IMG/VR virus record: IMGVR_UViG_3300042731_011319
Span: 32,001-96,000 of that record
DNA length: 64,000 nucleotides
Reading direction: 5' to 3' (one strand)
From: a virus
Position 1 is the first letter of the stretch; each line of letters begins with the position of its first letter. This document shows, piece by piece, positions 28,307 to 51,659 of the stretch. A program made the translations under genes and the position numbers. Under the pieces are notes generated by a model. The model was not told where the DNA came from. It made no database searches and worked only from the letters and a program-made list of their open reading frames with translations.

Positions 28307-29299
28307 TTAATATCCGTCAGAATCATTACAATTCTGCATTTGATTATAAATCCATTCGTATGTTTTTTCAAGTCCATCTTCAAGAGTAATCGATGGAGCC
28401 CAGCCAAGAACTTCTTTGATCATAGTATTGTCACTATTGCGGCCACGAACCCCCTGGGGTGCATCCAGATTATAGTTGCGTTTTAATTTAAGCCCAGCAA
28501 TACCTTCAACAATATCAACAAGTTGATTGATTGAAACCATACGGTCGCTTCCAAGATTCAATGGGCGGGAGTCTCCCTTGTTCCACATTAGTTCCATGCC
28601 AGTAATGCAATCATCAATAAACATAAAAGAACGGGTCTGTTCGCCGTCTCCCCAAATTTCGATTTCATGCTTACCACTCATTTTAGCCTCAATAACTTTA
28701 CGGCAGATTGCAGCAGGAGCTTTCTCTCTACCACCTCTCCATGTGCCGAAAGGTCCATAAACGTTATGGTAACGACAGGTGCGAGAATCAATATCAAAAT
28801 CTTTTCCGTAATAGTAGGTGATGAGTTCGCTAAATAACTTCTCCCATCCATAACCATCGTCTGGATTAGCTGGAAATACATCAGATTCTTTGAGGGCTTG
28901 AGACTCTTGGTCTTTAATTTCAGACTGAATTGCAGCAGGATAAACACAAGCAGTAGAGCTATAAAGAACTTCTTTTACTCCATTATCTCGTGCAGCCATC
29001 ATCATATGAGTCTGGATAAGTACATTTTCCATACAAAGGGCTTGGTTGTGCTCGACGAAACCCATGCCGCCCATATTACAAGCAAGGTTATAAATTCGGT
29101 CAACTCCAACACTTAGCTTATAGCAATGATTTTTTTCTTGGAGGTTACAATCAGGATGATTTTCGGCCGCGTCAAATGTCTGATACCACATATCTGCGGG
29201 CTTAATATCGGCCGCAATAACTTCGTGCCCTTGGGCCAATAAATCTTTAACTAAATAACCAGCAATAAAGCCGCCTGCTCCTCCAACTAGTATTTTCAT
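28307..29299 (-). CDS. GDP-mannose 3,5-epimerase-like extended SDR
   Basis: GAGGFIA, NLA.NMGGMGF, S.ACVYP, YGWEK, GGREKAPAA.CRK, GVRGRNSDN. Confidence 0.88.
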   Translation of the reverse strand: MKILVGGAGGFIAGYLVKDLLAQGHEVIAADIKPADMWYQTFDAAENHPDCNLQEKNHCYKLSVGVDRIYNLACNMGGMGFVEHNQALCMENVLIQTHMMMAARDNGVKEVLYSSTACVYPAAIQSEIKDQESQALKESDVFPANPDDGYGWEKLFSELITYYYGKDFDIDSRTCRYHNVYGPFGTWRGGREKAPAAICRKVIEAKMSGKHEIEIWGDGEQTRSFMFIDDCITGMELMWNKGDSRPLNLGSDRMVSINQLVDIVEGIAGLKLKRNYNLDAPQGVRGRNSDNTMIKEVLGWAPSITLEDGLEKTYEWIYNQMQNCNDSDGY

Positions 29300-30078
29300 T
29301 TTATATGTTTTTTTATAGTGTCATCGAAATCTTCTAATTCACATTCTGCTTTATAATGGTTAAACCAAATTTCTTCATCATCTTTAAATGATTTAATCTT
29401 AGACCCATGAAACTTAGCACTATGTATTGATAGCCTTTTAATTCTTTCTCGATCAGGAGGATTTATTAGCCATTTTTGTGATCCATCTAGATAAAGACCG
29501 CAATTTGAGTATATATCTCTTACTGATTGATTTCTGATTCTTTGGGTATAGGTTTTACCGTAAAACTCAAAATAATTAAAACCGTTATTGTCTGAAATAA
29601 AATCTTGAATGGAATCGTGATTCCTTAATACCATATATTCGTCTGGGTCTATGTTTAGTATCCATGACTCAGGGCGTTGTAGCATATCCCAATACATTTT
29701 AACTTGACAAGAAGGGTGGCCACTATTATGGTCAACCCCATAAACCCAGGGAACTTCATGTACATTGGGGTACTTTGATATAACTTCGTTAAATTTAGAA
29801 AGTATATCATCATCAGAAAAATCATGGAAATAATCTAAATTAGGCTTGCAGCCCCATACCATTTTTTCTGGAGCAGTTCTTAAGGATTCCCTTCTTTCTA
29901 ATTCTTCTTTTTTTATGTTTTTCCAATACGCGTTTTGGTCAGAAATGGAAGTTAGCCCATTATTATAAATGTATATTGAATTTATGCCCAAGCTTAAATG
30001 GTGATCTATCCATTCTTCTAAAAAGAAAACTTCTTTTCGAAGTAAAATTACTGCGCACAATGTAACTGAGTTATTCAT
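29296..30078 (-). CDS. GT-A glycosyltransferase (GT92/GT2-like)
   Basis: EWI.HH..LG...IYIY.N; W...ID.DEY. Confidence 0.75.
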   Translation of the reverse strand: MNNSVTLCAVILLRKEVFFLEEWIDHHLSLGINSIYIYNNGLTSISDQNAYWKNIKKEELERRESLRTAPEKMVWGCKPNLDYFHDFSDDDILSKFNEVISKYPNVHEVPWVYGVDHNSGHPSCQVKMYWDMLQRPESWILNIDPDEYMVLRNHDSIQDFISDNNGFNYFEFYGKTYTQRIRNQSVRDIYSNCGLYLDGSQKWLINPPDRERIKRLSIHSAKFHGSKIKSFKDDEEIWFNHYKAECELEDFDDTIKKHIK

Positions 30079-30901
30079 CTTTTATATTTTCTACCCAATA
30101 ATTAAAGTCTAATGTTTTATAATAAGGTTTTATTTTTTTAGATAATATATTATACTGTTCATTTAAGAAATTTTCAGTAATTTTTTGATAATCTTTTTGG
30201 TGATCTAAGAATAAAATTGGCAATTCAGAGTGATCAAATTGATTATACATGGGATCTTTTATAACGATAGGTATGGCTCCACAATAAAGGGTGTCATAGA
30301 ATCTAAACGAATCAGGCGCTGTACCCCTGGGGCATATAACAAACTTACTCCTTCTTAATTTAATAAAAAAATCTTCATTAGACATAAACCAAGAGCGCTT
30401 TGAGCCATTAAGACCTCTTAGGCCAATATTTTCCAGGGTATAAATGGGGTTGTCTTTTATAAATAAATAAATAGCCTTTCGGATCCAGCTTGTATTTAAT
30501 GAAAAGTTGCCGTAAACTAAAATATCGCGATCCCTCTTTTGAGTACTTTTGTGAAAACAATCTCTTGCCCTAAAATCTCTGCCCATTGGAAGAAACTTAA
30601 TAATGTCGTGAGTATAGTCGACATTATTGCAATAAATTTTTTTAATGTTATCAGGTATGTCTATATCTTTACTTAAGCAGCGATCTGTTTTGCCGCAAAT
30701 AATTGAGTAAATAAATGGTTTTTTAGATATAGGTTCAAAATATTCAAGTATCTTTTGAGGGTTAAAGGTATGCCTATGGCTGCCAATAAAAATAATAGAA
30801 TCTTGGTTTGGTATATCTTTGGCAGAGTTAACGGTAATAATACCGTTTTTTTTAAAAAAGGTTTCGTTAAATAAAAGCAGTATATCTTCCATTGGAAGCA
30901 T
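30071..30901 (-). CDS. exostosin-like glycosyltransferase (GT47)
   Basis: SKF.ICP.G...D.FR.Y.L..GAIPI. Confidence 0.8.
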   Translation of the reverse strand: MLPMEDILLLFNETFFKKNGIITVNSAKDIPNQDSIIFIGSHRHTFNPQKILEYFEPISKKPFIYSIICGKTDRCLSKDIDIPDNIKKIYCNNVDYTHDIIKFLPMGRDFRARDCFHKSTQKRDRDILVYGNFSLNTSWIRKAIYLFIKDNPIYTLENIGLRGLNGSKRSWFMSNEDFFIKLRRSKFVICPRGTAPDSFRFYDTLYCGAIPIVIKDPMYNQFDHSELPILFLDHQKDYQKITENFLNEQYNILSKKIKPYYKTLDFNYWVENIKDE

Positions 30902-50095: not shown

Positions 50096-51021
50096 AGTTT
50101 TGTTACCTCCAAATCTTCATCTAATAAACCCCAATTATCGGGATTTGGGTTTTCAATCATTTTATTTCTTATATCGAGAGGGTTGACTTTTCTCTCTCCT
50201 TCTTGTTGGGCATGAGGCTGTGTAGAATCATTTGAGGCTCCATCGTTTCTGCCATGATATTGATGATAAAAATCTGCATCGATAGCTAAGCATAGATTAT
50301 ATATATCTTCACGTTGAGCGATTCGGTTTAAAAATTCAGTATCCATGCTGTTCATATAGACGAGGTCTTCATTGAACCCTTTGTGTTCCAAGTAGCAGTC
50401 TCTGTCAACCATCATAACACCAACAGCCCCACCATAAAAAGGAAAAACTTCTTCATTTGGCATTAGGCGGCTATAATGATTATGCTCATGACAGATCTCC
50501 ACTTTTTTAGAAAGCTTCTGGTCATAGACAAAATCTCTGAATACAGAGTGATGAGATTGCTCTTCACTGAGATTGCGGCGACTAGAAAAAGCCGCTCGAG
50601 GCCAAGGCCAACCATAGTCTTTGACTTCATATTCATGATAAAACCAATCCATGAATCTCTGGCCAACTAATGTGTCTTGGTCGATGCGAGCAAAATGCTT
50701 GCCTTCTTGGTGCCTAAAACCAACATTCATTGCATGAACTTCTGAAAACGGAGAGTCTCCTTGGTGCTTGTCTGCGATATCAGGTGGAACCGTAACGATT
50801 TTAAGTAAGCCTTGTACTTCTGGAGAAAACCTAGAAGATAAAGATTCTTTTAAAGAACCGCTTCTGGAACACCAGTCGACAAGAATTACTTCAGATTCAT
50901 CGACTACATTATTTTTACGAATGATTTCACAAGTATGGTTGACAGTATTAAGGCAACGACCAACAGAATCTCCATTGTAATTATCATTGCGAGACACTAA
51001 GATATAAGATATCCTTTTCAT
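50092..51021 (-). CDS. GT2-like glycosyltransferase
   Basis: RND.Y, E...VDW, NVG.R, D.D, GF.E......D. Confidence 0.75.
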   Translation of the reverse strand: MKRISYILVSRNDNYNGDSVGRCLNTVNHTCEIIRKNNVVDESEVILVDWCSRSGSLKESLSSRFSPEVQGLLKIVTVPPDIADKHQGDSPFSEVHAMNVGFRHQEGKHFARIDQDTLVGQRFMDWFYHEYEVKDYGWPWPRAAFSSRRNLSEEQSHHSVFRDFVYDQKLSKKVEICHEHNHYSRLMPNEEVFPFYGGAVGVMMVDRDCYLEHKGFNEDLVYMNSMDTEFLNRIAQREDIYNLCLAIDADFYHQYHGRNDGASNDSTQPHAQQEGERKVNPLDIRNKMIENPNPDNWGLLDEDLEVTKL

Positions 51022-51659
51022 CTTTGGGGAACTAATCGCTTACAGTTAAAAGAGAATACCCTATTAGGATTGGGTACGGTTACTTGTATACCACCTATAG
51101 ATTTTAGCATGTTAGAATAATAAGAGCCTGGTGTAGATATATGTTTCTCTAAATGCTTTAAGCAATGAAAGTTAATACTAGGGCGATATTCATCTTCGAT
51201 GTTTAAATTATAAGTATTAGGAACGATATAAAATATTTTATTCATCCAGTTAAATACATTATTTAATTCTAACATTATATCGTGAGAATCAGTTGCCACA
51301 AAGAAATTAGCCTTGCGGGAATTGATCTGAACTTTGTTCATCTGAGCAATGTAAACATTAAGGTCTTGAACTTTTTCAGACTCCAATATAACCCCCCATG
51401 TTTTGTCTGTAATTCGTTTGTTTATTCTGATGATTTCTTCAATAGCTGGCTCTGGCATGGAACTCAAGCTGTGAATTTGGTTTGAGAATGCATATTCTTT
51501 GTATTCCATTTTTAATTTTGTTGTTTTTTGTTGATCTGTATAATATTTCAGTGATTGTTCGTATAAAAGTTCGCGGTCTAAGAAGTCTATTATTTCTTGA
51601 CTCTTATTTTTATACACTTCAGAGACCGCGTTAAAAGTATTTTTAAATATTTTAAGCAT
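51018..51659 (-). CDS. degenerate GT23/fucosyltransferase-like protein
   Basis: FFVATDS shared with 46891..47778; catalytic HxR apparently absent. Confidence 0.4.
   Translation of the reverse strand: MLKIFKNTFNAVSEVYKNKSQEIIDFLDRELLYEQSLKYYTDQQKTTKLKMEYKEYAFSNQIHSLSSMPEPAIEEIIRINKRITDKTWGVILESEKVQDLNVYIAQMNKVQINSRKANFFVATDSHDIMLELNNVFNWMNKIFYIVPNTYNLNIEDEYRPSINFHCLKHLEKHISTPGSYYSNMLKSIGGIQVTVPNPNRVFSFNCKRLVPQR

Follow-up and report, generated by a model that had tools for sequence, protein, structure and literature searches.

Glycan building by viruses without the help of host secretion is known from the giant viruses of algae and amoebae, and to our knowledge phage systems of this kind are known only with one or two enzymes. 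In the Megavirinae and the chloroviruses, the glycosylation clusters are clade-specific and concern the fibrils or the capsid (PMC9614988, PMC10117803, PMC4691112), and sulfate-metabolism genes, e.g. SAT/APS kinase, occur in the clusters of Moumouvirus australiensis, Cotonvirus and Tupanvirus (PMC9614988, PMC10117803). Here we describe a glycan island of a tailed bacteriophage, found at positions 28307-51659 of a 64,000-nt stretch of DNA (the window), which is bases 32001-96000 of a 109,722-bp IMG/VR virus record (IMGVR_UViG_3300042731_011319, 35% GC; the contig). The island is an unbroken run of 30 open reading frames (ORFs) in 23 kb, all on the minus strand. Judging from its gene content, it is highly probable that the island and the genes around it encode a cytoplasmic pathway that builds fucose-type glycans, sulfates and methylates them, and supplies its own donors.

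The giant-virus clusters resemble the island in several respects. They bring together nucleotide-sugar synthesis, many soluble glycosyltransferases (GTs) and methyltransferases, host export is not needed, and their content varies between close relatives (16 core and 14 variable genes in the island, as defined below). The phage in turn has a GDP-mannose 3,5-epimerase (GME), Gmd, Fcl, a UDP-sugar epimerase, a ManC-type cupin at the contig start, and 13 clustered GTs in 23 kb. On the other hand, the hosts of the giant viruses are eukaryotes whereas a tailed bacteriophage is considered here, and the giant-virus glycans have been located chemically on fibrils or capsid while the phage system is known from genes alone. 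The sugars also differ, with rare bacterial amino sugars in the giant viruses compared to fucose and L-galactose here, and the term sulfotransferase does not occur in the part of the giant-virus review text covered by our search, compared to about eleven such genes in this phage.

Among phages, the nearest described cluster is the 13-gene gmd/fcl/GME/GT11/NodZ cluster of cyanophage S-SCSM1, which was read as a cell-wall or lipopolysaccharide (LPS) modification without experiments (PMC9602691). The clusters of S-SCSM1, S-SM2 and P-TIM68 combine gmd, fcl and GME with GT11, NodZ-type and other GTs as the island does, and the GT11 homologs of T4-like cyanophages are 33-39% identical to the island GT11. 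However, there are about 13 genes in the cyanophage cluster compared to more than 35 here, sulfotransferase homologs were not found in any cyanophage record, and cyanophage genes for the sulfate donor 3'-phosphoadenosine 5'-phosphosulfate (PAPS) are not reported. The lineage described here also differs from the T4-like cyanophages in its DnaE polymerase and in having no psbA. Homologs of one island sulfotransferase (45649) occur in 3 of 50,697 GenBank phage records, one gene each, with 26-27% identity. The cultured jumbo phages Ralstonia phiRSL1 and Stenotrophomonas DLP_6 have single annotated sulfotransferases at this level of identity to 45649, one gene each, outside GT islands and with no reported function. 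A near-DNA search of the island against the same 50,697 phages gave no match, and our literature search for phage- or virus-encoded sulfotransferases found no paper; sulfation on this scale in a phage is thus without a description that we could find.

As the original prediction had stated, the run is co-directional and tightly coupled. All 30 ORFs (named below by their first window coordinate) lie on the minus strand, 24 of the 29 junctions overlap or have a gap of at most 8 nt, and the five remaining junctions have gaps of 28-129 nt. In base composition, the island is no different from the remaining contig. Scans for sigma-70 promoters and terminators within the island gave sites no more frequent than in shuffled sequence; early-type TTGACT-N17-TATAAT (sigma-70-type) promoters are visible on the contig. 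The proteins also look soluble, which had likewise been proposed: in a scan for transmembrane (TM)-like 19-mers with a threshold of 1.6, no island ORF gave a TM-like segment, except that the N-terminus of 42753 reached a borderline 1.63, which is probably an artefact of the assigned start codon.

The sugar donors can be assigned with large scores. The GME gene in the island (28307..29299) matches plant GME with a phmmer E of 1.4e-94, and its score to the plant structures PDB 8sg0 and 2c59 is 320 bits compared to at most 95 bits for any other SDR. The SSAC..YP, YGxEK and GREKAPAA stretches are conserved in the alignment, and we take these stretches to hold the catalytic Cys, Tyr and Lys as in the Arabidopsis enzyme. 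The product of GME is GDP-L-galactose/L-gulose. Near the island, also on the minus strand, are Gmd (GDP-mannose 4,6-dehydratase, 60200..61231, PF16363 with 339 bits), Fcl (GDP-L-fucose synthase, 59259..60203, E 1.8e-101 to E. coli GDP-fucose synthetase) and a UDP-hexose/HexNAc 4-epimerase- or UXS-like SDR (58342..59250). Both the epimerase in the island and the nearby gmd/fcl pair had been named from the letters alone, and both assignments hold.

For the sulfate donor, the original prediction was that PAPS synthesis genes are absent from the window and that the donor must come from the host or from elsewhere in the genome. The first part stands, and for the second a search of the full contig for sulfate-activation genes found PAPS-side genes outside the window: an APS (adenosine 5'-phosphosulfate) kinase fusion, a pyrophosphatase and a CysQ-type phosphatase. 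The APS-kinase/nucleotidyltransferase fusion (304 aa, contig 30783-31697) stops 303 nt short of the window, and the alignment of its N-terminal half to APS kinases includes the P-loop as well as the D..R and FTAEDR stretches. A stand-alone homolog of the kinase also exists in a distant relative without sulfotransferases. The inorganic pyrophosphatase adjoins a small cytidylyltransferase-like gene, and the CysQ-type enzyme is of the inositol-monophosphatase family. The same part of the contig carries a second glycan island at 12.9-21.5 kb, which has five more PF03567 sulfotransferase genes, a GT10, a GT2/7C and Fringe-like genes. Directly downstream of it in the same orientation (contig 10105-12789) is an 894-aa DUF285 (BspA-like repeat) protein, which is 74% identical in relative G001 and not present in G008.

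Six sulfotransferases had been proposed in the island and six are found, five of family 2 (PF03567) and one of a different type. The five are all above the gathering cut-off (31.8-62.8 bits) with the 5'-PSB (PKxxGT/S) and 3'-PB (RNPxxR..S) motifs intact. They are 31483..32070 (60.6 bits), 36709..37338 (31.8 bits, shared with G001 only), 45649..46290 (62.8 bits), 46294..46890 (40.6 bits, with only paralog-level matches in the relatives) and 48565..49251 (53 bits). The sixth, 47775..48575, was rejected as a PF03567 member by hhalign and belongs to a different family, with 96 representatives among 1.8 billion proteins. A profile of 30 relatives matches the LPS sulfotransferase NodH (PDB 9vki) with E 1.7e-8, followed by other sulfotransferases, and the RSGTT and R...S columns (R12, G14, R127, S136) are invariant in the family. 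Its AF2 model (pLDDT 95.4) aligns over the whole length to TPST, Stf0 and 3-OST sulfotransferases with Z 11.6-9.7 (TPST1: Z 11.6, rmsd 3.9, 189 aligned; Stf0: Z 11.4). Profile and model together identify 47775 as the sixth sulfotransferase, of NodH/Stf0 type.

In the whole record there are ten PF03567 matches, and eleven in the closest relative, G001; with 47775, this contig has about eleven sulfotransferases. The paralogs are only 23-36% identical to each other and, because they are this old and divergent, each presumably has its own position specificity. Contig ORF 19155-19727 was considered as a further divergent sulfotransferase and is not supported by Pfam or hhalign. In G001, the whole-record search gives three sulfotransferase domains in one 657-aa frame (G001:C1:27667-29601), compared to three tandem genes from the ORF caller. 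Orthologs of 45649 with 66-97% identity form about 70 clusters in marine data from Tara, ENA, JGI and NCBI, on contigs of up to 222 kb.

The count of about 18 GT-like genes in the original prediction is fair, because 13 island ORFs score above the Pfam cut-off as GT families, two fall just below, and weaker GT-like genes add to these (up to 7 further genes beyond the 13). The Pfam search therefore places the first enzyme inventory, made without tools, close to right. Two of the 13 are fucosyltransferase-like, namely the GT11 alpha-1,2-fucosyltransferase-like protein 32105..32923 (PF01531, 96 bits; no ortholog in the five relatives) and the NodZ/GT23-type alpha-1,6-fucosyltransferase-like protein 46891..47778 (PF05830, 58.5 bits). 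The GT11 start is probably an internal Met, since the homologs have only 253-257 aa. The highest scores among the others belong to two GT32-type proteins with the Caps_synth (DXD sugar-binding) region, 35193..35996 (PF05704, 101.7 bits; variable, G006 only) and 38122..38841 (101.5 bits; unique to this phage), followed by a GT90 at 39477..40421 (PF05686, 88.1 bits; in all relatives but G001), a GT2 with a GT7C-type C-terminal part at 37316..38113 (PF00535, 73.4 bits; PF02709, 41.7 bits), a GT77-type nucleotide-diphospho-sugar transferase at 42753..43535 (PF03407, 58.8 bits) and a variable GT61 at 34378..35187 (PF04577, 56.4 bits). With lower scores there are a GT-A protein at 29296..30078 (Glyco_tranf_2_4/GT2_4, 40.7 bits, with a weak GT92 match; variable, only in this phage among the six compared), an exostosin/GT47-like protein at 30071..30901 (PF03016, 35.2 bits over a short stretch with a cut-off of 33.4; a variable cassette, G006/G007 only), an HtrL_YibB-like putative GT at 32905..33633 (PF09612, 34.6 bits; unique to this phage), a variable GT25 at 43601..44215 (PF01755, 26.6 bits) and a GT31 galactosyltransferase-like protein at 44215..44847 (PF01762, 25.9 bits; only paralog-level matches in the relatives). 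The two below the cut-off are the variable GT25-like 33609..34376 (PF01755, 18.4 bits for a cut-off of 24) and the borderline GT31-like galactosyltransferase 35993..36649 (PF01762, 22.5 bits for a cut-off of 23), the latter being a paralog of 44215 with 33% identity.

Other GT candidates have no Pfam match or rest on leads. ORF 49244..50095, the most conserved island protein (95%), is a GT8-like lead without a Pfam match: its Atlas language-model neighbours are viral, and 14% of them carry PF01501. ORF 50092..51021 (94% conserved) is a GT2-like lead, with an Atlas score of 0.98 to viral clusters in which PF00535 occurs in 82%. ORF 38825..39484, in 5 of 5 relatives, has no Pfam match and an acidic DDWD stretch that looks GT-like by eye only. 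ORF 44844..45620 (present in G001, G006 and G008), also without a Pfam match, contains HLRGYD and LSDD stretches which, as motifs read by eye only, resemble the fucosyltransferase superfamily. Outside the island, 62416..63501 on the plus strand is a GT-B (Glycos_transf_1-like) gene just under the cut-off (25.2 bits).

The first gene of the run, 51018..51659, adds a further candidate from structure. Its family consists of 103 clusters, all within this phage lineage, and an Arg and a TD pair are invariant across it. For the AF2 model (pLDDT 81.5), the top 14 Foldseek matches are all fucosyltransferases, and 43 fucosyltransferase rows (NodZ, FUT8, POFUT1/2, plant FUT1) come before the fold list drops to Z 8.4. 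Residues 60-202 align to NodZ with Z 12.4 and rmsd 3.2 A over 125 residues, so this part of the model appears to be folded like the C-terminal, GDP-fucose-binding domain of NodZ/FUT8/POFUT. The match is confined to this domain, and the protein is without the N-terminal acceptor (Rossmann) domain of a complete GT-B.

The remaining island genes include the predicted methyltransferase, a SAM enzyme at 30901..31479 (Methyltransf_24, 53.4 bits), and a 157-aa protein at 42292..42765 with no Pfam match. ORF 40411..42162 (583 aa, 69-95% identical in relatives) does not look like a glycan enzyme; it is an ATPase of HATPase_c type (PF13589, 29.7 bits) for which no informative PDB match was found. It has a glutamate-rich tract of about 70 residues and appears split into two ORFs in G001.

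We propose that this island, the larger of the two in the phage, forms with the nearby genes a self-contained cytoplasmic glycan factory. Gmd and Fcl would convert GDP-mannose to GDP-L-fucose, and GME would convert it to GDP-L-galactose/L-gulose, with the UDP-sugars interconverted by phage enzymes. Some 15-20 short soluble GTs of differing families, at least 4 of them of fucosyltransferase type, would then build one or several branched chains, which the methyltransferase and the six sulfotransferases would decorate. PAPS may be supplied or boosted by the APS-kinase fusion and the pyrophosphatase, and the inhibitory product PAP may be removed by the CysQ-type phosphatase. From what is known of these families, the products would be sulfated, fucose-rich glycans: fucose is very likely a component because of the donor enzymes together with GT11, the NodZ-type protein, 51018 and the GT10 on the contig, and L-galactose is possibly another.

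The island content in related phages was compared by tblastn over six related records (this one and five relatives), with core defined as ortholog-level presence in at least 3 of the 5 relatives, at 46-96% identity. This comparison, suggested along with the original prediction, gave 16 core and 14 variable genes with cassette-like swaps. The core consists of GME (94-95% identical), the methyltransferase, sulfotransferases 31483, 45649, 48565 and the NodH-like 47775, the GT31-like 35993, the GT2 37316, the GT77-type gene, the NodZ-type gene, 38825, the HATPase gene, 42292, 49244, 50092 and 51018. Unique to this phage are the GT11, the HtrL-like gene, one GT32, the GT92-like gene, one GT31 and sulfotransferase 46294, and in their place the closest relative carries a GT17, a GT92-like gene and one additional gene each of the GT77, NodZ-like and sulfotransferase types. 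The left half of the island is nearest to G006 (92-95%) and the right half to G001/G009 (88-95%); since the halves have different nearest relatives, the island is recombinant. A core frame with swapped cassettes is what characterises surface-glycan loci that undergo diversifying selection, and in the proposed model the variable cassettes would give each phage strain its own surface glycan. The distant relative G004 (158 kb, 43% GC) shares replication genes and gmd with the contig and none of the island genes, and the GT-B gene 62416 is kept even there (40% identity).

Like the island, bacterial O-antigen and capsule loci combine sugar-nucleotide genes with a row of GTs, and they recombine and exchange central cassettes between conserved flanks. 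However, their initiating transferase, flippase or ABC exporter, and polymerase are not found in this lineage. In five related records, two of them CheckV 100% complete, there is no match to an initiating phosphoglycosyl transferase (Bac_transf, PF02397) or to Wzx (Polysacc_synt, PF01943), and the search for an ABC exporter (ABC_tran, PF00005) matched only a kinase P-loop below the cut-off. Neither the contig nor the complete 213.8-kb relative G008 has an ORF with more than 4 TM-like segments, and therefore WecA/WbaP-type initiating transferases are excluded in G008. The reported lack of Wzx, ABC exporter and initiating transferase in the window thus extends to the relatives, and the island does not have the hallmarks of a Wzx/Wzy- or ABC-dependent locus.

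Our best guess for the acceptor, held tentatively, is the phage's own virion proteins. All that is needed is phage-encoded and there is no exporter for the product. The nearest systems known to work, those of giant viruses and mycobacteriophages, also decorate their own particles. Virion proteins would receive their glycans in the cytoplasm ahead of lysis, in the manner of chloroviruses, mimiviruses and some mycobacteriophages. With no exporter, and with a glycan that would be too complex for the host flippase and polymerase, the only visible route out is on particles at lysis. In the work of Freeman et al. of 2023, phage-encoded cytoplasmic GTs are said to modify the capsid and tail-tube proteins of mycobacteriophages, with a C-terminal extension of the structural protein as the acceptor. 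This is the sole experimentally shown case of phage virion glycosylation that we know of. The mycobacteriophage system differs from ours in having two or so GTs, no sulfation and the C-terminal acceptor extension, and no such tract is found on this contig. Glycosylated mycobacteriophage virions are also referred to in PMC12619734, which cites Freeman 2023.

Several findings weigh against a virion coat of this kind or against parts of the proposed pathway. The original prediction regarded S/T-rich fibres as candidate acceptors, and this has to be dropped: no S/T-rich tract was found in the fibres or any other ORF of the contig or G001, bar two short chance-like runs, and fibres are not singled out as acceptors because no contig protein has such a tract. 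This contig lacks the genes for the capsid and the tail tube. The APS-kinase fusion is no more than NMNAT/cytidylyltransferase-like in its C-terminal half, which bears on whether the phage makes its own APS, and several GT assignments are weak or rest on leads only. Also, the solubility of the GTs does not decide the target. TM-less peripheral GTs are the norm for extending lipid-linked precursors at the inner face of the membrane, including cytoplasmic-face assembly on undecaprenyl carriers, and they fit a host-envelope target equally well, which is also the target assumed in the literature on the smaller fucose/GT clusters of T4-like cyanophages (S-SCSM1, PMC9602691).

These last points belong to the main rival to the virion reading, in which the phage GTs and sulfotransferases extend lipid-linked O-antigen, capsule or S-layer precursors of the host at the inner membrane face, and the altered product is exported by the initiating transferase, flippase and ligase of the host. 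Such remodelling of the envelope could block superinfection, spare progeny from binding debris, or change stickiness or grazing. The mosaic cassettes, which resemble bacterial surface-polysaccharide loci, could follow strain-specific host acceptors, and GT25, HtrL and Caps_synth are families named from LPS or capsule work. Nevertheless, we regard envelope remodelling as somewhat less probable than the virion reading. In the five related records, two of them rated complete, neither an initiating transferase nor a flippase, polymerase, ligase or ABC exporter occurs, host Wzx/Wzy are usually selective for the repeat unit and would have to tolerate a heavily extended sulfated chain, and more than 35 enzymes are a large outlay for superinfection exclusion.

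If the virion is the acceptor, a more specific reading is that the coat is a fucoidan-like sulfated fucan or galactan, which serves as bait for the glycan-harvesting receptors of a polysaccharide-degrading marine host, the cassettes tuning it to different hosts. We rate this as a long shot; were it true, the virus would build its own receptor ligand by mimicking the food of its host. Two fibre-like genes of the window (2729-4435 and 18403-20094) are 59.5% identical in their N-terminal 200 residues or so and unrelated in the C-terminal parts, which suggests a common attachment module with different tips.

The neighbourhood of 46891 and 47775 raises another possibility, that the product is neither on the virion nor on the envelope. 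The rhizobial NodZ, NodH, NoeE and NoeI also place fucosyl-, sulfo- and methyltransferase activities on one glycan in the cytoplasm, and adjacent core NodZ-like and NodH-like genes beside sulfotransferases and a methyltransferase recall this tailoring of Nod factors. The factory could accordingly make a soluble or lipid-anchored sulfated oligo- or polysaccharide, with Nod-factor-like decoration as one model, that leaves the cell at lysis or serves within it as a decoy, a protectant or a metabolic sink; or it could glycosylate host or non-structural phage proteins. That the search for S/T-rich tracts gave no evident acceptor protein and that no exporter was found in the related records would both agree with such a product. 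However, the likeness of 46891 to NodZ and of the 47775 family to NodH is at the family level only, a NodC-type multi-TM chitin-oligomer (backbone) synthase and an acyltransferase are not seen, and there is no phage precedent. There are far more GT families here than in the Nod-factor system, and this diversity suggests a large heteroglycan instead of a small decorated oligomer. We therefore find a product of this type improbable.

Phages also glycosylate their DNA with several sugars, as cited in PMC12619734 (Pyle 2024), and the island GTs could be imagined to glycosylate modified bases against restriction, as in the T-even and the arabinosylating phages. The contig does carry dUTPase/dCTP-deaminase-like, dNMP-kinase, cytosine-C5 methylase-family and nucleoside 2-deoxyribosyltransferase-like genes, but no base hydroxymethylase was identified on it, and twenty GT families, fucosyltransferases, GME and eleven sulfotransferases are far beyond the known DNA glycans. 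We know of no sulfated DNA glycans, and consider DNA hypermodification very improbable. The 2-deoxyribosyltransferase-like protein (window 1632-2168) is the most conserved gene of the lineage, with 99% identity in G001, 91% in G008 and 68% in the distant G004.

All these readings presuppose a phage genome. The record, which is classed as viral by IMG/VR, comes from a large uncultured marine tailed phage with a genome of about 214 kb, of which it covers about half, since the complete relative G008 (213.8 kb, CheckV 100% complete) is syntenic with the contig over its 89-198 kb. The window encodes a tail-sheath-like protein, a fibre with an S74 chaperone domain at its end, and DnaE, DnaB, primase, a UvsX-like recombinase and ribonucleotide reductase (RNR), and the other half of G008 carries TerL, RIIA and a tail-terminator-like gene. 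The island is thus phage-borne as first stated. A cellular contig, or one from a eukaryotic giant virus, with an ordinary surface-polysaccharide locus could be suspected from the many island GT families best known from eukaryotes, and from two relatives found in bins of metagenome-assembled genomes (MAGs) of bacteria. These two bins, with lineage contigs of 210.8 kb and 5.5 kb, are assigned to Cellvibrionales and Flavobacteriaceae, and mis-binned phage DNA fits because the bins are of two different phyla. Given also the phage genes above and the sigma-70-type promoters, a cellular or giant-virus origin is hardly credible. The 210,818-bp contig JAYQMT010000004.1 of the Cellvibrionales MAG encodes the GME of the lineage with 88% identity and, with 67%, the 51018 protein that only this lineage has. 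This contig almost certainly represents a phage genome of the lineage, close to complete, that was binned with a bacterium.

As for the host, the nearest cellular homologs of GME are 60-64% identical and scattered over Verrucomicrobiota, Acidobacteriota and others, and those of the CysQ-type enzyme are at most 51% identical and belong to many phyla. The polymerase is of DnaE type, and the T4-like cyanophage traits (psbA, family-B polymerase) are lacking, with no match to psbA (Photo_RC) in the five records; the moraphages (PMC12619734) were rejected as the same lineage since they use a family-B polymerase. The DnaE-type ORF (window 12731-16957) begins near the palm domain, with a separate 262-aa ORF and a DnaQ-like ORF upstream, and all three are kept in G001 and G008 with 70-91% identity. 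Window 10300-12702, labelled ATP-dependent protease by PHROGs, is not Lon: its Pfam matches (AAA, AAA_lid_9, AAA_2, ClpB_D2-small and a weak Clp_N) are those of a two-ring ClpA/B/C-type AAA+ unfoldase. Window 54534-55760 encodes a subtilisin-family S8 protease that continues into a Glu/Pro-type repeat, for which the trypanosome PARP repeat model gives a match, and has a hydrophobic anchor at its C-terminus; the gene is missing from 3 of the 5 relatives.

Some regulatory signals were seen over the contig. A GTGTA box lies at -14 to -18 of 13 contig ORFs, compared to 0.33 expected by chance. Among the genes with the box are the two fibre genes, RNR, gmd, the UDP-sugar epimerase gene and one island GT (examples are at window 8035, 18403, 25218, 34378, 55770, 58342 and 60200), and a Shine-Dalgarno sequence is missing from most genes of the contig. 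In the divergent intergenic region 61231-61402, the plus strand carries a perfect TTGACA-16-TATAAT (with TG) at 61282-61309, and the minus strand carries the GTGTA box for gmd.

Roughly a third of the 110-kb fragment is given to about 35 glycan enzymes, with eleven sulfotransferases and PAPS-side support of its own, in a lineage found widely in marine metagenomes, where it forms about 70 to 100 sequence clusters. Whatever the target, the genes offer a compact collection of short and soluble GTs together with presumably position-specific sulfotransferases, which could aid the in vitro synthesis of sulfated fucose oligosaccharides. A product located on the virion would be the first sulfated glycan coat of any phage, with consequences for the stability of the virion, its adsorption to marine gels and particles, the recognition of the host, and the marine pool of recalcitrant sulfated polysaccharide.

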